Below, piece by piece: positions 2,480 through 63,264 of a stretch of DNA of 64,000 nucleotides. Under the pieces are notes generated by a model. That model saw only the letters and a list, made by a program, of their open reading frames with translations, ran no database searches and was not told the origin of the DNA. The position numbers were made by a program, and so were the translations under genes. This DNA is from Pachysolen tannophilus NRRL Y-2460 (Eukaryota): contig KV454011.1 of assembly GCA_001661245.1 (NCBI GenBank), forward strand, positions 2,282,987 to 2,346,986. Direction: 5' to 3'. How positions within the stretch are numbered: position 1 is the first letter of the stretch; every line of letters begins with the position of its first letter.

Positions 2480-3583
2480 ATGATTGGAGAATCAAGGACT
2501 GATTTATTAAATTGGTTGAATTCAACTTTAGATTTGAAATATACCAAGATCGAGCAATGTGGTAGTGGTGCAGCTTATTGTCAAATATTTGATTCTATTT
2601 TCCAAGACATGCCGATGTCCAAGGTTAAATTTAATTCGAATTCAGAGTATACTCATGCAAGTAATTTTAAAATACTTCAATCTGGTTTTGTAAAGCATAA
2701 AATTGAAAGAAATATTCCAGTGGATAAATTGGTTAGATGTAGGTTTCAAGATAATTTAGAATTTTTGCAATGGATGAAAAAATTTTGGATGGAGAATAAA
2801 GATGAAACATTTTATGATCCAAATATTAGAAGAAATTCTAATGTTGTTAGTGCACCAGTTTCTGGAAATTTTTCTGGAACAACTACAGCAAATACAAATA
2901 CAAATACAAATGGACATGGACAGGGGCATGGACACGGAAAAGAGCAGTTTTCGTTATCATCAGCCAATGGCTCAAGGGTATCTTCGTTGGGGAATTCTAG
3001 AAGAGTTAGTAGCGTACAAAATTCTATTAATAAACCATTACAAGTGAAATCTAAATCTCCTTCTTCCTCAGATGGAGCTGCTAAAAAACGTGTTTCGTCA
3101 ATTGGAATCAATAGCACTTTGTCTTCGTCATCATTGCCATCATCAGCCTCGTTGTCTTCGTCGTCAGCAACAACGACTCAAGCACAATTCCAACATCAAA
3201 TCAATAACTTGACAAATGAATTAAATCATACCAAAGATATCTTGGATGGAGTAAATTCAGAATTAGAAGAATATAAAATCGCAGGAGAAGGTCTAGAGAC
3301 AGAGAGAAACTTCTACTTCAACAAATTAAGAGAAATTGAAATCTTGACTCAATCAATAAAAGAATTACTTGCATCAAATCCTGAAGATCAAGAAAATAAA
3401 ATTCAAGATCAACAGATAACAATCAATAGTTTGATTTCAAGCGTTGAAAGCATATTATACTCCACAGAAGAAGGTTTCCAAGTACCGGATACAGAAGAAG
3501 AATCTCAACAACAACAACAACAACAACAAAATAACCTCAAAGAGAACAACCAAGGAATGGTTATCGATGAAGAAATGTTCTGA
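2480..3583 (+). CDS. BIM1: EB1-family microtubule plus-end binding protein
   Basis: N-terminal CH domain (MIGESRTDLLNWLN, CGSGAAYCQIFD, FQDNLEFLQW); EBH motif LETERNFYFNKLREIEIL; C-terminal EEMF tail. Confidence 0.95.
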   Translation: MIGESRTDLLNWLNSTLDLKYTKIEQCGSGAAYCQIFDSIFQDMPMSKVKFNSNSEYTHASNFKILQSGFVKHKIERNIPVDKLVRCRFQDNLEFLQWMKKFWMENKDETFYDPNIRRNSNVVSAPVSGNFSGTTTANTNTNTNGHGQGHGHGKEQFSLSSANGSRVSSLGNSRRVSSVQNSINKPLQVKSKSPSSSDGAAKKRVSSIGINSTLSSSSLPSSASLSSSSATTTQAQFQHQINNLTNELNHTKDILDGVNSELEEYKIAGEGLETERNFYFNKLREIEILTQSIKELLASNPEDQENKIQDQQITINSLISSVESILYSTEEGFQVPDTEEESQQQQQQQQNNLKENNQGMVIDEEMF

Positions 3584-3936
3584 ATACTTTTTATAGTGTG
3601 GTTACAATTGTGTAGTTTGCTGAACGACCTTTTATTTTCGACCATTAAAATAAAATAAAATAAAACGTATTTATAATTTATATATATATAATATAATATA
3701 TTAATTAATTAATTATTTAATTAATTAATTAAATATCTTAAAAAGAAGTTTAGAAGTTTTAATCTTTGATTTTGTATTGTTTTAGTTGATGATATAGTTG
3801 GAAATTGGATTGGATTTTTAATTGAAGAGAAAGAAAAAACGATAAATTTTTTTTTATTTTTTTTGAATGAAAATAGTGGCAAGTTTGGAAAGTTTGGAAA
3901 ATTTGGAGAGATTTTTAAATTAGAAAAAGTCTTCTG

Positions 3937-41259: not shown

Positions 41260-41930
41260 ATGGGGAGTGTTTTTCTACCGCATTTGAAGTCTGGATGGTG
41301 AGTATGAATTTTTATGTCTTTTTTTTTTAGTTTTACATTATTTGGAGAGAAGTACTAACTAATGAATAGGCATGTTGACCAAGCTATACTATCTGAGGAT
41401 GAAAGATTGGTAATTATAAGATTTGGTGTGGATTGGGATAAGGAATGCATGTTAATGGATGAACTTTTGTATAGTATTGCTGAAAAAGTTAAAAACTTTG
41501 CAGTTATCTATCTATGTGATATAAATCAAGTTCCTGATTTTAATCAAGTAAGTATTGTTAAACTGAACAATTATTTTTGTAATTATACTAGTTAAATTCA
41601 ATTACTAACTGATTTTTAAGATGTATGAGTTATATGATCCAATGACTATAATGTTTTTCTTCCGAAATAAACATATGGTAGGTTATCCTGGGTTTTTTAT
41701 TTTTTTCAGATATACATATTAGTTTTTACAATTTACATACTAACAGTTTCTAGATGTGTGATTTTGGTACTGGTAATAATAACAAATTGAATTTTGTATT
41801 GAAGGATAAACAGGAACTAATAGATATAATCGAAACCATTTACAGAGGTGCAAGGAAGGGTAAAGGTTTAGTTGTTAGTCCCAAAGATTATAGCAGTATT
41901 ATGAAGAATAGAGGAGGCACCGAGATATAA
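41260..41930 (+). CDS. DIB1: U5 snRNP protein Dib1/Dim1; exons 41260-41297, 41370-41547, 41621-41677, 41754-41930
   Basis: Spliced product MGSVFLPHLKSGWHVDQAILSE...VPDFNQMYELYDPMTIMFFFRNKHMMCDFGTGNNNK...YRGARKGKGLVVSPKDYS; introns GTGAGT..TAG, GTAAGT..AAG, GTAGGT..TAG, each with TACTAAC. Confidence 0.93.
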
Positions 41931-42136: not shown

Positions 42137-42859
42137 ATGATAATTGACGATAAGAAAGGGATTGAGCTTGCTCTTGAAGAAGCAAAGAAAGGTGCGTAAT
42201 ATCTATTCTTTGTTAGGCTCTTTTACTTTTTTGCTCTTTTGCTTTTTAGCATTTTTATATGACTATTCAAGTTTTTGTGTACTAACAACTATCAAACAGG
42301 TTATGCTGAAGGAGGAGTTCCTATCGGTAAGTAAGCCATATTGAAAACTCATTATCTTTTTAATTTCCAACTAACATCTAATTTTGTGATTGCAGGTGCC
42401 TTGTTAGTGAGTGGTGATGGCCAAATCTTGGGCAGAGGCCATAATATGAGATTTCAAAAAAACTCTGCCATCCTACATGCTGAAATGTCAGCTTTAGAAA
42501 ATGCGGGAAGAATGAAGGGAAACGTTTACAAAGATTGTACAGTAAGTAACAGAATCTGAAGAAAAGGCAAAAAAAAAAAATATTTCACCAGCTTTACTAA
42601 CGATAGTCATTTTTCATTTCATTTCTAGATGTATACCTCGTTAAGTCCTTGTGATATGTGTACTGGAGCATGTATTATGTACGGTATTAAAAGAGTAGTA
42701 TTAGGTGAAAATACAACACTTGTTGGAGGAGAAGGCTACTTGAAGTCTAGAGGTGTTGAAGTTGTCAATATGGACAATCAGGATTGTAAAGACATTATGG
42801 CAAAATTTATCAAGGAAAGACCAGATGACTGGTATGAAGACATTGGTCAAGAAAAGTGA
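42137..42859 (+). CDS. FCY1: Cytosine deaminase; exons 42137-42191, 42300-42326, 42396-42541, 42629-42859 (152 aa)
   Basis: Spliced MIIDDKKGIELALEEAKKGYAEGGVPIGALL...GRGHNMRFQ...LHAEMSALENAGR...TMYTSLSPCDMCTGA; HAE and PCxxC zinc motifs; introns GTGCGT..CAG, GTAAGT..CAG, GTAAGT..TAG. Confidence 0.93.
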
Positions 42860-43008
42860 AAAATTCTTTAATACCGCTTCTCGCTCGCTACAAAGTAAAT
42901 AAAAAATTATTTTAGCGAGATCAGCGGGTAGTGCATGTCGGACCTAAGTATTTTTTTTCTCTTATCTAAAGCTTTTAGCCGTTCTGATTCAGAACAAGTG
43001 AAAAATAG

Positions 43009-56417: not shown

Positions 56418-58157
56418 ATGATTGAAGCGTTTCGTTTGAACGTGTTAAGATTTAAATCAAAATCTCAGATCTCATTTAGCAGAGTGGTAAACTCTTTTCA
56501 GAATACTAGAAGCTACCACTATAGTAAAAACGGAAATGACAACAGTAGTGGCAACAGCAATGGTAACAGCAATGGTAGCCAGTATAAATATCATGAATAT
56601 TTCAGAATAACTGATAAGTATAGAATGAAAATCTCACTGTCGGTCGCAATTGGTGTTAATTACTATGTATTCAGTTCCTTTTCTTTAATTGAGAACCAGA
56701 CTTTTCAAACTAAGTTGTTCACTCCAGAACAAGTTTCAAGACATAATAAAAAGGAAGATTGTTGGATAGTGATCGACAACAAAATTTATGATATCACTGA
56801 GTTTTTAGGAAACCATCCTGGAGGAGCATCTGTATTATTGAAGTATGCAGGCCGTGACGCAACTGAAATCTTTAGCAAGATTCATTCAATGGACGTAATC
56901 GCTAGAAGACTATCTACTAGTGATTGTATAGGTGAATTGGTCGGCAGTTTTCCTAAAGTTGAAGAAGAAGAAGAAACAGTAAAAGAATTTATTGGAACCC
57001 GGAACCTAGAAAATGGTGTTCCACCAATATCTCTGATTTTTAATCTTTCTGATTTTGAGTTTATTGCCAAAAAGGTTCTTCCAAAGACGGCTTATACTTA
57101 TTATGCTACAGGATCCGATGATGAATTTACACTAAGAGAAAATCATCATGCTTACAGTAGGGTTTACTTTCGTCCCAAGATCTTGACAGATGTCACCAAT
57201 GTCGATATTTCTACAAAATTTCTTGATACTGAGGTTCAAGTTCCAATTTATATTACTGCTTTCGCTGGTTCGAGAATGGCACATCCAGATGGGGAATTGA
57301 ATTTGTTGAAAGCCGCAGAAAAGGAAGGTATTATTCATATGGTGCCATATCAGTTATCTTTCCCATTTACCGATTACATGAAAGAAGTTAAATCAGGTCA
57401 AGATCAATGGTGTCAGTTACATTTTTACTCAAGAGAAGAAATTGAAAACATAGGTGAGCAGCTTGCCAAGTATGAAAAGTACAAAACAGTCAAGGCTATT
57501 TGTATCAATGTAGATTTAGCATCATTGGGGAATAGAGAAAGAGACGACAAAGTTAGGTATGAATTTGATAAAGATGGTTCATTGGACGAATTTACCAGTG
57601 CTAGCGATAACAGACCTTGCTTGACTTGGACTGACATTGACAGGATTAAAAAATTGACCAATATTCCTATTATTTTGAAAGGTGTTCAAAGAGCAGAAGA
57701 TGTTATCTTAGCTCTGGAACATGGTTTAAATGGTGTTATCTTATCAAATCATGGTGGAAGGCAGTTAGATTTCTCCAAGGCACCTCTTGAAGTTCTTTCC
57801 GAAGTTCATAGAGCCACCAAAGGCGGAATTTTGCTTCCTACTAATTTCAATATATTTATTGATGGAGGTATAAGGCGTGGAAGTGATATAATTAAAGCTT
57901 TATGTTTGGGAGCTACTGGGGTTGGCTTGGGCAGACCTTTTTTATTCAGTATCTCTGGTTATGGAGAAGAAGGAGCTATTAAAGTGATACAAATTTTGAA
58001 AAACGATATGATTAGAAGTATGAAGTTATTAGGTGTTTCCAAGATATCAGAATTGAATGCAGACTTGATAGATACAAATATGTTAACTTTTAGAAATAGA
58101 CATGCTGATAAATTGTACGATCAAGTTTATGAGCAATTGCCCTTTCCAACATGCTAA
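56418..58157 (+). CDS. CYB2: Flavocytochrome b2-like alpha-hydroxy-acid dehydrogenase (cytochrome b5 plus FMN barrel) with a diverged active site
   Basis: HNKKEDCWIVI, HPGG heme domain; TLRENHHAYSRVYFRPKIL, LGNRE, ILKGVQ, SNHGGRQLD, DGGIRRGSDIIKALCLGA, GRPFL. Confidence 0.8.
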   Translation: MIEAFRLNVLRFKSKSQISFSRVVNSFQNTRSYHYSKNGNDNSSGNSNGNSNGSQYKYHEYFRITDKYRMKISLSVAIGVNYYVFSSFSLIENQTFQTKLFTPEQVSRHNKKEDCWIVIDNKIYDITEFLGNHPGGASVLLKYAGRDATEIFSKIHSMDVIARRLSTSDCIGELVGSFPKVEEEEETVKEFIGTRNLENGVPPISLIFNLSDFEFIAKKVLPKTAYTYYATGSDDEFTLRENHHAYSRVYFRPKILTDVTNVDISTKFLDTEVQVPIYITAFAGSRMAHPDGELNLLKAAEKEGIIHMVPYQLSFPFTDYMKEVKSGQDQWCQLHFYSREEIENIGEQLAKYEKYKTVKAICINVDLASLGNRERDDKVRYEFDKDGSLDEFTSASDNRPCLTWTDIDRIKKLTNIPIILKGVQRAEDVILALEHGLNGVILSNHGGRQLDFSKAPLEVLSEVHRATKGGILLPTNFNIFIDGGIRRGSDIIKALCLGATGVGLGRPFLFSISGYGEEGAIKVIQILKNDMIRSMKLLGVSKISELNADLIDTNMLTFRNRHADKLYDQVYEQLPFPTC

Positions 58158-58314
58158 TAGGTGTAGAGAGAGATAGAGAGAGATTACTAGACATAGAAAT
58201 TATTCATCTTTTGCTTTTATTCTTTTTTTTTATTTTTTATTTATCTTCAACTTCTGTTGAATAAATCAATAAAAAACTCATTTGCTGTTTTTTCTTTTCC
58301 TTTTTTACTTTTTC

Positions 58315-58431
58315 AATTTGTAGTCAGGCTCCACGGTCTGTCAGGACCGATATTATCATCAACGTCTTATATATTTTATATAAGACACAGTTGACCGTCG
58401 TGAGTTGTGGAAAAATCATCATTTACAAATT
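58315..58431 (-). ncRNA. snR73: Box C/D snoRNA snR73 (25S Cm2959 guide)
   Basis: Box C ATGATGA 58422-58416; guide CTCACGACGGTC antisense to 25S GACCGUCGUGAG; C' TGATGA 58361-58356; D CTGA 58327-58324; 8-bp terminal stem AATTTGTA/TACAAATT. Confidence 0.9.
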
Positions 58432-58530
58432 CAAAAAATAAAAAAAGAATCAAAAAACAAAAATTAAATCATCTTTTGTCACCAAAAAAAATCCTTTCTT
58501 TTTGATACTAAAAAGTTGAATAAAATAATA

Positions 58531-58613
58531 AACATCAGACTTGAAAAGGTTTCGTTTCATAGAAAATCTCAGACATATGCTTGTCATTTTAAATTTCAAA
58601 TTCATCCTCTGTA
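58531..58613 (-). ncRNA. snR74: Box C/D snoRNA snR74 (18S Am28 guide)
   Basis: Box C variant AGGATGA 58608-58602; guide GACAAGCATATG antisense to 18S CAUAUGCUUGUC; D' CTGA 58572-58569 (the +5 rule gives A28); D CTGA 58538-58535. Confidence 0.9.
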
Positions 58614-58761
58614 AATAAAGAAAAAAAAGAAAGAAAAAAGAAAAAAAAAAAAAAGACATCTATATTGAATAAAATTAGTTAGTAAATGAATTCAAATTTT
58701 CATCATTATTATTGAGCTCTAGAGATAAAAAATTTGTGAAACCATATAGAGAGGAATAATA

Positions 58762-58849
58762 AGTTTCAGATAGGCATGAATGGTTATTGTAAAGAATGTA
58801 TCCTTCATATAAAATCGGACTCGTCATCTATTTGGATCATCTTCAAGTG
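58762..58849 (-). ncRNA. snR75: Box C/D snoRNA snR75 (25S Gm2288 guide)
   Basis: Box C variant TGAAGA 58845-58840; guide TAGATGACGAG antisense to 25S CUCGUCAUCUA; D' CCGA 58818-58815; second antisense element CCATTCATGC to 25S GCAUGAAUGG; D CTGA 58769-58766; flanking GAGGAAT/ATTCCTC stem; within intron 58915-58660. Confidence 0.9.
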
Positions 58850-59028
58850 TATAATTCCTCTTTCGTTTTATAAATTCTTCTCTTCTTTGAGCCCAATAAA
58901 CACACTGATACTTACGAGTTATTCATTTTTGATATCAAAAATAACATTATTTTATGATACCAAAAAAAAAAGAACCACAAAATAAAGAAAGAGAAAAGAA
59001 ATAAAGCAAAAAAGAAAAAAAGGTAAAA

Positions 59029-59120
59029 TAAATCAGTCACGGCGAGTTTCTGAGGCTCGCCTTTAATGCATTGTCACTCATCAAATTATTCAGTGCCCAG
59101 TGCAATGTTTCCTCATATTT
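59029..59120 (-). ncRNA. snR76: Box C/D snoRNA snR76 (25S Cm2197 guide)
   Basis: Box C variant ATGAGGA 59116-59110; guide GCACTGGGCA antisense to 25S UGCCCAGUGC; D' CTGA 59093-59090; C' TGATGA; internal GGCGAG/CTCGCC hairpin; D CTGA 59036-59033. Confidence 0.88.
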
Positions 59121-59277
59121 TAAATAAAATCAAAAAAAAAAAAAGAAAAACAAGAGTAAAAATAGCAATAATAAACTGTGAATTATAAGTTAGTACAATT
59201 TAGCCTTTTTAAATATATCAAGGTTCTATGTTAGCAAAAAAAGAAGAAAATTGATTCTGTTGAATAGTTATCATTAA

Positions 59278-59360
59278 TAATCAGTCTTGGTGCAAAAACT
59301 TATCAACATCTGAAATTCAGCCAGTAATTCCAGCTTTGTTTTTGTAAAATCATCACTGTA
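59278..59360 (-). ncRNA. snR77: Box C/D snoRNA snR77 (18S Um578 guide)
   Basis: Box C GTGATGA 59356-59350; guide AGCTGGAATTACTG antisense to 18S CGGUAAUUCCAGCU (one G-U pair); D' CTGA 59320-59317; D CTGA 59284-59281; inside a GTATGT...TACTAAC...CAG intron. Confidence 0.92.
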
Positions 59361-59625
59361 AATGATAAATATAAAATATGAATTCAACTTTTGTTGTTTG
59401 CTAACAAAATAACTAAAGAATAAATAAATAAATAAAAAAAAAAAAAAAAAAAAAAACATACCAATTATTACCATAACTCAGAACTCTGAATTAAACTCTC
59501 CTATCATTAAAAGACTTATTACTTATTAGAATTTTCAGCTTTAAAGAAAGAAATAAAATAAAATAAAATAAATAAAAATAAAAAAAAATTAACGGATATT
59601 ACTATATCATCGATAATATATTTTC

Positions 59626-59707
59626 AACTTCAGCGATTAATGTTCAGATCATTTTAAAATGTCATAAACTCTAGTTTGTAATTTATTAATTGAAGTCATC
59701 AGCAGTC
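59626..59707 (-). ncRNA. snR78: Box C/D snoRNA snR78 (25S Um2421 guide, S. cerevisiae numbering)
   Basis: Box C TGATGA 59701-59696; guide CAAACTAGAGT antisense to 25S ACUCUAGUUUG; D' ATGA 59665-59662; D CTGA 59633-59630; the +5 rule hits the U of ACU. Confidence 0.85.
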
Positions 59708-59790
59708 TAACAATATATTATTTCTGACAATATATCTAGAACTAACTTACATATTAAATTAATACAAAACAAAAATTTAAATCGTTTATT

Positions 59791-59865
59791 ATATTTATAA
59801 AGATGATATTTCCAATTAACCAACCTTTTATACCTCTTTTGGTGAAAAATTTTTTTTCACCAAAA
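59791..59865 (-). promoter_or_regulatory. Promoter of the snoRNA host gene: TATA box plus RRPE within an inverted repeat
   Basis: Minus-strand TATAAATAT 59799-59791; TGAAAAATTTT at 59843-59853 inside the 13-bp inverted repeat TTTTGGTGAAAAA-ttt-TTTTTCACCAAAA (59837-59865). Confidence 0.6.
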
Positions 59866-59934: not shown

Positions 59935-62900
59935 TTAAGAGGAAGCGGCAATAGCAGCGGCAGCAGCAGCAACTTGTTTGTGTTCTTTTTTCAAGTCTTT
60001 GAGTGTGACGACTGCTCTATGGCCATTGATATTGGTAAGTAACCACCTATCGTCATCTTCTTCGATAACATTGAGTGTATTTTCTACTATTAGGTATAAA
60101 TCTTGAATTTCTTTTCTTTGGGCTGCGTTGAGAGTGGTAAGGTCAGAATTGATATAAAATCTATTGATGTATTGATATAATGCTTGACTAGCACCTCTAT
60201 AATCATCATTGTTTAATCTCCATGAGTATAAGATTTTGTGATATTTCAATGATCGTTTTTGAATTGATTCTTCTTCTGTTAAATTTGATAAAATAGTATC
60301 CATGGCAAAAATTAATCCCTTACTTGTAAATAAATTTTTGAAACTAACAATTAAATTTATTTTATTTTTTTCTAATAAAGTTAATACCAATAGATTTAAT
60401 GATTTTTCAACTAAATTCATTGCTTTAAAATTGTTAAGAGCAGTAATTGAATTCTCATAATTATTCAACGATAAGGAAATTTGAAAAAAATTCCAGTAAA
60501 CAATATCATTATATTTTGTAATATTATCTCCAATTAATTCATCAATTGTTAATTTTGTTAATTTAAAAGATTGGTTTAAAGAGTTTGGAACTTCTTTAAA
60601 AAAATTCACCAATAAAAGATAATATTTGATTTTAGATTCAGCATCAAATAAGATTAAAAATCTAGAAATATCTGATAAATTTTTCAAATCTTGTTTTCCC
60701 AATTGATAATTTATAATATTATCACAATTTGATACAAATAATTCATATGCTATTTCTTGATTATTACTATTTAAAAAGACTAAACCTTTTAAAAAATTAT
60801 CAATAACATTGTCTTTTAAATAATCAATTATTTTTTTCTTAACAATTAATTCCGAATGTTTTAAAGATATTAAAGATGAAATCAATGATTGAAGTAAAAA
60901 ATCAGTCTGAACAACTCTGTTTACTATTAATTGATTTAATTTGTTTAATGAATTACCATTGAGGTTAAATCCACTATAATTAAATTCTTTATTAATGATT
61001 TTTAAAAAAAATGATGATGAATCTATATTAATGTTTAAAATTACATCAATATGTTTTAATTTTTTAAAAATATGATTCAAATCTTGGAAAATTTTTAAAA
61101 TTTTATCATTTGAATTAAGAATTAATAATACAATGCATGTGTTAATTAAAATTGCTTCATCCACTAATAATTTTGATTTAAAAGTATTTATAAAAAATTC
61201 AGAACCTAAATTTCCAAATTTTTCATTTATTGGAATGAATTGTTCTTCAGAATAATTTGTAAAATAATTTACTATAAATTCCAAAATTTCAATTAAATTT
61301 GGAATTAAATTCAAATTTATTAATAGTTGATTAACTATTTCTTCAGTTAAATATTTGGATAATAAATTATCAAATATAAAAACCATTTTTGATTCCACAT
61401 CATCATCTTTAATTTGTAAAAGTTGTCTTTTAAATTCATAAATAGTTATACTATTAAAATTCAATCCAAATCCATTAATTACATCAAGATATCTTGAAAG
61501 TTTTTCTTCATCTTTATTATAAATCGAATTTTCAATTAAATCACATGGTTTATATATCGAATAATGTAAATTTTTCAAAACTAAAACCAAATTTTTTTTC
61601 AAATCATAATCTATTGCAATAGGTTCAAGGCATTGTTTCAATAATTCTTTACATGATCCATCAAATCGCAGCCATTGATTTTTTAACCGTTTAAAATTAT
61701 TAGTGTCGTCATCTTTAGCTGCAAAATTATTTATAGCTAATATTCTTTGTTGAAGTGATAATTTTAATTCAGGGTGATAATCATAATATGATTCAAAAAT
61801 TGATGAGATTGTTTCCAAGATTGATTTATTGTAAATTCTCAATACTTTATCTATATAATAAGTATTGATTGAATCTTTTGAATTTAAATATTTTTCCCAA
61901 AGTGGGAATTCATCATCTCTATCTATTACATGCTGATTTTGATGTTGTTGTTGTTGTGAAAATTGTTGTTGCAGCAAATGTTGTTCTATCAAAGTATACC
62001 ATTCATAATTAAAAGTATCTAATTGTAACTTATTCATTTGAATTTTTTTAAAATAATTTGATTTTGACATTAAAAAAATTTTTAAAAAATTTTTACCATC
62101 TTTATAAATTTTTAAAGATTGTATTACCCAATTTAATTTTTTATTTTGATCAATTGGTAAATCAATAATTTTTAACATTTTAATTGTTAATTCATAATCA
62201 TTTTTTTTATTTTCAATTATTTGTAAAATATTTAATTTTGAATGATTAGCTATGATTATAAATTTATCATGATCAATAAATTCAATCAGATTTGATAAAT
62301 TTAAACTTAAAAAATCATTGTTATTATTATTATTATTTTCAATTCCATCATTAGTTATTATTTTTTCTAAATTTTTTTCAAATACAATTGTATGATTTAA
62401 TAATGACCAAATTCTTAAAATTTTATTAATTGATAAAGTTACAAGATAAATCTTGTTAAAAATTTTCATATCTAATATTGTATTAATATTAATATTATCA
62501 ATTAAATCTTGATTTTTCCCCTTATTTAAGAAAAACAATTTTTTAGCTAAATTATTAAAATATGAAGAATCATTAAAATTTAAAGCACCAATTGAACTAA
62601 ACATTGATTCTCTTTTAAATTCTAATAATCCACCATCTATTAAAGGAACAATAATCAAATTTTCACTTAATGAATGAATTGAAAAAGCATTTCTTAATTC
62701 AAAAGAATAAGGAACATCATAATGACACCATTTTTCAATTGGAACCAAATTTTTTTCATTACCAATACCATTTTCTGATTTTTTAATAAAATCTTCTATA
62801 TGGAAATAAAGAGATATAAGTAATCCATTTAAAGTTAATAAATCAATTATAATACCATCTTTTTTAACAAAAACCGATAAACAATTTTCATTATATACAG

Positions 62901-63264
62901 TATCTGGTAATTTTAAATGGAAATTGTTTAATGTAAAATTTAAATGATTATTGAAAAGTAATGGAGTTAAAACTAATGTTGTACAATCATTTAATAATTT
63001 TAAACAAACTCGATCAATCAACCAACTTGAAGTTTCCAGTCCATTAATTTCATCGTAATCTGAAAAATCCACAAAGCGCCCAGTCTTTGTTAACTCATTT
63101 TCAAATTTAAAACGTGCATGTTCTCTACTTGTATCTTTACCGCCATCATCTTCATTATTAATTTCTACCTTGTTATAAATAGGCAAATTTATCCAAACAT
63201 CTTCAACTTCAGTTCCCAAAGCGTCATTGTTTATCACAACTTCCGAAAACGCTGCTGTCATCAT
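59935..63264 (-). CDS. NUP120: Nucleoporin Nup120/Nup160
   Basis: About 1110 aa; WCHYDVPYSFELRNAF, PLIDGGLL, YLVTLSINKILRIWSL beta-propeller; YHKILYSWRL..DDYRGASQALYQYI C-terminal motif; ATG at 63264 (the ORF-track extension is microsatellite). Confidence 0.8.
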   Translation of the reverse strand: MMTAAFSEVVINNDALGTEVEDVWINLPIYNKVEINNEDDGGKDTSREHARFKFENELTKTGRFVDFSDYDEINGLETSSWLIDRVCLKLLNDCTTLVLTPLLFNNHLNFTLNNFHLKLPDTVYNENCLSVFVKKDGIIIDLLTLNGLLISLYFHIEDFIKKSENGIGNEKNLVPIEKWCHYDVPYSFELRNAFSIHSLSENLIIVPLIDGGLLEFKRESMFSSIGALNFNDSSYFNNLAKKLFFLNKGKNQDLIDNININTILDMKIFNKIYLVTLSINKILRIWSLLNHTIVFEKNLEKIITNDGIENNNNNNNDFLSLNLSNLIEFIDHDKFIIIANHSKLNILQIIENKKNDYELTIKMLKIIDLPIDQNKKLNWVIQSLKIYKDGKNFLKIFLMSKSNYFKKIQMNKLQLDTFNYEWYTLIEQHLLQQQFSQQQQHQNQHVIDRDDEFPLWEKYLNSKDSINTYYIDKVLRIYNKSILETISSIFESYYDYHPELKLSLQQRILAINNFAAKDDDTNNFKRLKNQWLRFDGSCKELLKQCLEPIAIDYDLKKNLVLVLKNLHYSIYKPCDLIENSIYNKDEEKLSRYLDVINGFGLNFNSITIYEFKRQLLQIKDDDVESKMVFIFDNLLSKYLTEEIVNQLLINLNLIPNLIEILEFIVNYFTNYSEEQFIPINEKFGNLGSEFFINTFKSKLLVDEAILINTCIVLLILNSNDKILKIFQDLNHIFKKLKHIDVILNINIDSSSFFLKIINKEFNYSGFNLNGNSLNKLNQLIVNRVVQTDFLLQSLISSLISLKHSELIVKKKIIDYLKDNVIDNFLKGLVFLNSNNQEIAYELFVSNCDNIINYQLGKQDLKNLSDISRFLILFDAESKIKYYLLLVNFFKEVPNSLNQSFKLTKLTIDELIGDNITKYNDIVYWNFFQISLSLNNYENSITALNNFKAMNLVEKSLNLLVLTLLEKNKINLIVSFKNLFTSKGLIFAMDTILSNLTEEESIQKRSLKYHKILYSWRLNNDDYRGASQALYQYINRFYINSDLTTLNAAQRKEIQDLYLIVENTLNVIEEDDDRWLLTNINGHRAVVTLKDLKKEHKQVAAAAAAIAASS

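Follow-up and report, generated by a model that had tools for sequence, protein, structure and literature searches.

How do six small nucleolar RNAs (snoRNAs) leave a host RNA in which some of them lie in introns and others in exons? A locus of the yeast Pachysolen tannophilus NRRL Y-2460 raises this question: on the minus strand of a 64,000-nucleotide stretch of contig KV454011.1 (hereafter the window; coordinates are window positions unless another locus is named, and counts over 128 kb cover both of its strands), the box C/D snoRNAs snR78, snR77, snR76, snR75, snR74 and snR73 follow one another in this order from 59706 to 58322, a span of 1385 nt. A sequence-only reading of this DNA had described the arrangement as a non-coding host gene in a partly intronic, partly polycistronic state, caught in the act of losing its introns. 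Our analysis agrees with much of that description and arrives at a different history, in which the mixed arrangement is old and in which two routes of snoRNA release, splicing and cleavage by RNase III, probably act within a single transcript of the gene known in fungi as cluster I.

The identity of the six units was established by a search of the window against Rfam, in which the curated gathering score of each family served as the cut-off. Five of the predicted members reached it (5/5), namely snR78 (59628–59706; RF01176, 51.9 bits against a gathering score of 48), snR77 (59279–59360; RF01181, 85.2 bits against 50), snR76 (59029–59121; RF01209, 77.4 bits against 55), snR75 (58764–58845; RF01185, 62.8 bits against 40) and the last member, snR73 (58322–58426; RF01207, 46.8 bits against 37), all on the minus strand. 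The sixth unit (58531–58613, minus strand), which has the C box GGAUGA, drew SNORD27 as its sole match, below gathering (43.9 bits against 52, E 1.7e-5), so that the expectation of Rfam matches for snR73 to snR78 was borne out at gathering score for five members, with a weaker match for snR74.

For comparison with other yeasts, metagenome contigs were scanned with the 18-base guide word of snR77, giving 71 loci, of which eight have a C box just upstream of the word; 60 of the 71 are without a C box and seem to be chance matches in unrelated contigs. One of the eight, L059, is a duplicate of L007, leaving seven loci for analysis: three Saccharomyces-like (L007, L039 and L043), three Candida-like (L032, L045 and L063) and L030, which is assigned to Brettanomyces bruxellensis because its Nup120 fragment is 100% identical. 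The cluster was recognised in all seven by Rfam and guide words, with the snR78 guide word common to 7/7 and the snR74 guide present in 6/7; L032 ends before snR74. In the seven loci that could be aligned over snR74 (the window and six other yeasts), the C-box core, the 17-nt guide with its D' box, and the D box are invariant, and we therefore accept the unit at 58613–58531 as snR74, which completes the order 78-77-76-75-74-73 given in the sequence-only reading. In three further matches, on metagenome contigs of 18–25% G+C (L009, L064 and L065), the guide word follows an ATGATGT box and precedes CTGA; they probably represent homologues, from non-yeast eukaryotes, of the snR77/U578 guide.

The methylation targets given in the sequence-only reading agree with the Saccharomyces cerevisiae sites tabulated in PMC5199042: Um2421 for the D' guide of snR78, Um578 for snR77, Cm2197 for snR76, Gm2288 for snR75 (with D' box CCGA), Am28 for snR74 and Cm2959 for snR73. 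Read from the Rfam alignments against these S. cerevisiae sites, every guide has, five positions upstream of box D or D', a base complementary to the nucleotide that is methylated. A seventh member, snR72, was also sought, and neither a snoZ122/snR72 Rfam match nor the snR72 guide word of the three Saccharomyces-like loci, at up to three mismatches, was found in the 64-kb window. In Yarrowia and Pezizomycotina, snR78 is reported to act as a double guide that replaces snR72; this possibility was rejected for the present locus, where the 3' guide of snR78 is unrelated to the snR72 guide. Lack of snR72 does not disqualify the locus from membership of cluster I, since the C. parapsilosis cluster, as described in PMC5033589, is without it too.

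We regard the locus as the orthologue of the cluster I host gene. The longest ATG open reading frame (ORF) on the minus-strand RNA, across four modelled forms that include unspliced and spliced ones, encodes 69 amino acids, in keeping with the claim that no real ORF is present. The unit is probably a non-coding gene of ~1.5 kb, transcribed from the minus strand by RNA polymerase II, whose sole role would be to supply the six box C/D methylation guides.

Whether the snoRNAs are intronic was judged by a rule derived from six coding introns of the window, three of them fixed by the continuity of Pfam profiles across exons and three by open frames. Their donors (GTGAGT, GTAAGT, GTAGGT, GTGCGT, GTAAGT and GTAAGT) and acceptors (TAG, AAG, TAG, CAG, CAG and TAG) vary, and their branch sites are TACTAAC in five cases and AACTAAC in one, that is (T/A)ACTAAC in 6/6; donors in this yeast are therefore loose and branch sites strict. 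The rule accordingly asks for a GTRNGT donor, a (T/A)ACTAAC branch site and a YAG within about 30 nt of it. Both snR77 and snR75 are enclosed by complete signal sets that fit this rule, at the very coordinates proposed earlier, and would define a snR77 intron of 286 nt (59176–59461, minus strand; GTATGT at 59461, TACTAAC at 59195–59189 and CAG at 59176) and a snR75 intron of 256 nt (58660–58915, minus strand; GTAAGT at 58915, TACTAAC at 58684–58678 and TAG at 58660).

These signals are far more frequent than chance would provide. With 13 occurrences of TACTAAC in 128 kb, ~0.07 would be expected in the six stretches of 120 nt that follow the snoRNAs, and two are seen; together, the six upstream stretches hold three GTATGT or GTAAGT words against ~0.2 expected. 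That the signals are dead relics, with cleavage of an unspliced polycistron supplying all six snoRNAs, is hardly conceivable. Such an account would have to explain two complete series of splice signals, each with donor, TACTAAC and YAG correctly ordered, the excess of TACTAAC, and the lack of stem-loops inside either intron. It would also have to explain why both introns are conserved in position in B. bruxellensis and in the Candida-like loci, the snR77 intron lying at the same place in L030 and all three of the latter.

The case of snR78 is less clear. A GTAAGT at 59745–59750 (minus strand), one of 20 occurrences in 128 kb, lies 44 nt upstream of snR78 and makes a perfect, if only putative, donor. 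No CTAAC occurs from 59627 to 59462, between snR78 and the next donor, and the sole branch-site-like word is TTCTAAT at 59525–59531 (minus strand), followed by AAG at 59517–59515 and TAG at 59503–59501. The earlier description of snR78 as having a perfect donor with a weak branch point is thus accurate; by the rule of this yeast, snR78 would lack the required branch site, whether (T/A)ACTAAC or at least CTAAC.

One could nevertheless suppose that three introns work here as in B. bruxellensis, with snR78 still spliced out from the GTAAGT at 59750 and with stem-loops serving only snR76, snR74 and snR73. Splicing would then proceed through TTCTAAT at 59531–59525 to an acceptor at 59515 (AAG) or 59501 (TAG), or skip to 59176 by way of the TACTAAC at 59195. 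The donor itself speaks for this, as one of the three counted above against ~0.2 expected, as does the complete snR78 intron of L030 (GTATGC...TACTAAC...CAG). The spacing is also suitable, TTCTAAT lying ~96 nt after snR78, comparable to the 83 and 79 nt of the two sure introns, and AAG is the acceptor of one coding intron of this yeast. Additionally, a minor form of the C. parapsilosis cluster I transcript is reported to arise by exon skipping (PMC5033589). Against it, TTCTAAT differs at two positions from the (T/A)ACTAAC found in all six calibrating introns and in both sure cluster introns, and the would-be second exon contains an AGUU-capped stem like those in the 78–77 spacers of intronless loci. 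The donor may even precede the start of transcription, as it lies only ~75 nt downstream of a TATA-like element, TATAAAAG (59825–59832, minus strand), read from the sequence and taken as the putative host-gene promoter. On balance we find three working introns rather doubtful, and expect that splicing of the snR78 intron is probably weak or absent here; the counterpart of this intron in B. bruxellensis is intact.

The absence of recognisable donors before snR76, snR74 and snR73, as first described from the sequence, persisted under a looser GT[AG]NGT scan, which found no donor before any of the three, while no CTAAC follows them; the only extra donor that it returned, GTGTGT at 58905, is inside the snR75 intron. 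A CAG before snR74 was considered as a distal acceptor and rejected, since the intronless L007 and L039 have an identical CAG ahead of their C boxes, so that it belongs to the snoRNA end.

The spacers ahead of the exonic members are rich in U. The sequence-only reading took these poly-U tracts for remnants of introns; the tracts are indeed there, and the two richest (76% and 83% U) stand immediately downstream of the two acceptors and are missing from the corresponding L030 spacers, so that they need not be intron relics. Poly(dA:dT) tracts are frequent in yeast promoters, and runs of 13–14 nt of poly(dT) ahead of snR76 and snR74 might accordingly be thought to mark promoters in the T-rich spacers, making snR76, snR74 and snR73 independent genes and leaving only snR77 and snR75 to share a spliced host. 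We consider this very unlikely: the spacers before snR76 and snR74 measure just 54 and 46 nt and start at intron acceptors, an acceptor without a downstream exon RNA makes no sense, and the cluster has been described as one transcript wherever it was tested (PMC5033589, PMC4138321).

Each non-intronic spacer contains one stem-loop on the minus strand. Between snR78 and the donor of the snR77 intron lies an 8-bp stem with an AGUU tetraloop (59474–59493). The spacer after snR76 forms a long imperfect hairpin with an AUGU loop (58917–58976; 25 pairs, with a core of 18 bp and one bulge) that ends 2 nt before the GTAAGT donor at 58915. A stem-loop with an AGGA tetraloop (58469–58519; 12 bp without interruption, 20 pairs when internal loops are allowed) separates snR74 from snR73, and another, with an AGAA tetraloop (58232–58277; 6 bp plus a 10-bp outer stem), lies downstream of snR73. 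Three of the four therefore carry the AGNN cap that serves as substrate criterion for RNase III of the Rnt1p type. The spacer after snR76 (58916–59028) folds at -15.4 kcal/mol (z -4.9), which was equalled by none of 200 shuffles. Within the 5' arm region of this hairpin, at 58961, a homopolymer is longer by two A (plus strand) in all four sequencing runs aligned, whose contigs are DNA-like, break at homopolymers and show no joints; one of the assemblies probably has the homopolymer length wrong.

A scan for uninterrupted stems of at least 6 bp capped by AGNN returned 34 in 128 kb, three of them in the cluster, and the AGGA stem between snR74 and snR73 is the longest of the 34. Over the 645 nt of non-intronic spacers, three were seen against 0.17 expected from dinucleotide shuffles (1/2000 of which reach three), and the 422 nt of intron flanks contain none. 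As controls, AGNN stems occur in the spacers of the intronless Saccharomyces-like loci, and the exonic snR76 of L030 is flanked on either side by AGGA stems. In L030 there is also a 10-bp stem with an AGUA loop (3346–3369 of that locus), the AG of the loop being the acceptor of the snR75 intron, so that the stem exists only in unspliced RNA; this suggests that cleavage there may compete with splicing.

Several points weigh against RNase III release as read from these stems. The AGNN test was framed after the folds were known, so that its count is indicative only; the loop of the post-snR76 hairpin is AUGU and not AGNN; the snR74–snR73 and post-snR73 spacers as wholes are not unusual in folding energy (z -0.66 and -0.62); and the stem after snR78 is only 8 bp long. 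S. cerevisiae Rnt1p cuts at roughly 14–16 bp, and this last stem is shorter. Moreover, the same scan found no AGNN stem in the three Candida-like loci (against three in the P. tannophilus cluster), so that their exonic snoRNAs evidently mature without them. That absence fits the situation in C. albicans, where RNT1 is reported to be inactivated and DCR1 to be used instead (PMC5499181).

Taken together, we infer a single transcript that would be both spliced and cleaved by RNase III. By the first route, snR77 and snR75 would be freed by splicing, debranching and exonucleolytic trimming. Removal of the two introns would leave a polycistron of four members, in the order snR78, stem, snR76, stem, snR74, stem, snR73, stem. 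By the second route, the stem-loop in each spacer would provide the predicted entry site for an RNase III of the Rnt1 type, and from its cuts 5'–3' and 3'–5' exonucleases would trim to the borders of the snoRNA–protein particles, as in the S. cerevisiae SNR72-78 cluster, in which stem-loops between the snoRNAs are cut by Rnt1p and the products trimmed by Rat1p/Xrn1p (PMC5033589).

A stricter version of this scheme is possible, and we put it forward tentatively. The two devices would alternate strictly, each RNase III stem serving both the 3' end of the exonic snoRNA before it and the 5' end of the one that follows beyond the exon junction, and the snR78 intron would be caught between states, with its donor kept, its branch site lost and an AGNN stem gained in the former downstream exon. 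If this were true, the gain of an RNase III site would here be seen directly going hand in hand with the loss of splice signals in de-intronisation.

How old the mixed layout is can be judged from the other yeasts. In the splice-signal map, the Saccharomyces-like loci are without introns; the Candida-like loci have GTATGT...TACTAAC introns around snR78, snR77, snR76 and snR75 and none around snR74 and snR73 where these are reached; and in B. bruxellensis snR78, snR77 and snR75 are intronic, while snR76, snR74 and snR73 are exonic. Candida-like L045 has GACTAAC in its snR75 intron and GTATGT inside snR78, both as described for C. parapsilosis (PMC5033589). In the otherwise intronless L043, at about 3627–3881 of that locus in cluster orientation, GTATGT stands 55 nt upstream of snR73 and GGCTAAC 76 nt downstream, which may be a relic or a weak intron.

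These layouts bear on the claim of the sequence-only reading that the locus is a snapshot of ongoing de-intronisation in which snR76, snR74 and snR73 recently lost their introns by splice-site decay, leaving the poly-U tracts as remnants. In its favour, the splice signals are gone while snoRNA order and spacing are kept, the Candida-like loci have an intron around snR76, which must therefore have been intronic in an ancestor, and de-intronisation through signal decay is a published model (PMC3596301), credited there and in PMC5033589 and PMC5824354 to Mitrovich et al. 2010. Yet the exonic state of snR76, snR74 and snR73 is shared with B. bruxellensis, whose Nup120 is just 26% identical to that of the window, so that the loss long predates the species. 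Apart from the weak snR73 candidate in L043, snR74 and snR73 are without splice signals in all six comparison loci that reach them, and the corresponding L030 spacers have no U-rich tracts.

Recent decay is therefore unlikely, and the snapshot interpretation is only partly right. The mixed intronic and exonic state is old and stable rather than fleeting, because B. bruxellensis has the same layout and the Candida-like loci share exonic snR74 and snR73; the sole change that looks specific to this lineage is the lost snR78 branch site. Comparison with orthologous loci, which had been suggested as a check, upheld the conservation of the snoRNAs and of the snR77 and snR75 introns and speaks against a recent origin of the exonic members.

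The surroundings of the locus add some detail. The flanking genes are convergent, a CYB2-like gene (56418–58157, plus strand; FMN_dh and Cyt-b5 domains) and, at the other end of the gap, the Nup120 gene (63264–59935, minus strand), and they leave 1777 nt between them, the ~1.8 kb that had been noted. Nup120 adjoins the cluster both here (59935–63264, tail-to-head) and in L030 (1–1278 of that locus, head-to-head), and from these opposite orientations it follows that one of the two has been inverted. Immediately upstream of the TATA-like element, a 21-nt palindrome (GGTGA, an A/T core, TCACC) occupies 59841–59861 on the minus strand; in B. bruxellensis, too, a comparable word with an A/T core precedes the cluster (L030, about 2008–2025). 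The palindrome may resemble the ribosome-biogenesis promoter element RRPE. Two small genes farther away, a DIM1/DIB1-like gene (41260–41930, plus strand) and a cytosine-deaminase-like gene (42140–42860, plus strand), have three short introns each, the six from which the splicing rule was derived, above the usual number per gene for Saccharomyces-type yeasts.

The window has a G+C content of 29.5%, and its AFG3 is closest, among named proteins, to that of Komagataella phaffii (77%), so that this yeast belongs on the Pichiales side of the tree. In the CYB2-like gene, codon 433 is CTG where 55 of 58 aligned homologues have Ala, the one informative site and a hint that this yeast may read CUG as alanine; the gene's two further CTG codons align with columns that vary, AFG3 has no CTG, and a tRNA scan of the window for the CUG decoder found no tRNAs. 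The six snoRNA genes and their host gene merit annotation in this genome.

Cluster I is conserved across Ascomycota, intronic in most fungi, intronless in Saccharomyces and mixed in Candida (PMC3596301, PMC5033589, PMC5824354), and Donovan et al. 2016 describe its snoRNAs as sitting both in exons and in spliced introns (PMC5033589). The contrast drawn in the sequence-only reading between the intronless S. cerevisiae polycistron and the intron-encoded clusters of other fungi is thus as published (PMC5033589, PMC3596301). We found no publication on cluster I in this clade, although the per-species figures and supplements of PMC3596301 and PMC5033589 may include close species. The layout is not new in kind, since mixed clusters and de-intronisation by signal decay are already in print. 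What is new here is one stem-loop per non-intronic spacer, three of them AGNN-capped, which fits release by RNase III alongside splicing. No principle is changed by this; the modest new point is that introns and RNase III stem-loops may be used in a complementary way, and the stem-loop pattern offers a testable account of how a snoRNA can outlive its intron, with an entry site for RNase III taking the intron's place.

In mammalian host genes of the UHG/GAS5 type, every snoRNA is, to our knowledge, intronic with one per intron, and exonic members released by RNase III are not known from them. They resemble the present locus as spliced non-coding RNAs with intronic box C/D snoRNAs, an analogy drawn in PMC3596301 and PMC4138321. 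The S. cerevisiae SNR72-78 polycistron is closer, with the same snoRNAs in the same order and spacer stem-loops as RNase III entry sites (PMC5033589), and the Saccharomyces-like loci have their AGNN stems in the 78–77, 77–76 and 73–72 spacers; it differs from the present locus in having no introns and seven members including snR72, against two canonical introns and no snR72 in 64 kb. Cluster I of the Candida CTG clade (C. albicans, C. parapsilosis and C. orthopsilosis, together with L. elongisporus) likewise shares the snoRNAs, their order and a non-coding transcript with intronic and exonic members (PMC5033589). The Candida-like loci have four introns, around snR78, snR77, snR76 and snR75, with GTATGT donors, whereas the present locus has two sure introns and one doubtful, an exonic snR76 and GTAAGT in two of its three donors. 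The locus contributes a Pichiales-side example to a published series that runs from all intronic in filamentous fungi through four introns in Candida to none in Saccharomyces.

Another counterpart is B. bruxellensis, which matches the locus in its exonic snR76, snR74 and snR73, its intronic snR77 and snR75, its GTAAGT donors, its Nup120 neighbour and a stem-loop directly upstream of the donor of the snR75 intron. It is unlike the locus in the AGGA-capped stems that flank snR76, in its divergent Nup120 and in its lack of poly-U tracts, and at snR78 the two are the reverse of each other, B. bruxellensis having a perfect TACTAAC and no AGNN stem in exon 2. Together, the two yeasts show that an intermediate state between intronic and intronless clusters can persist stably over long times.

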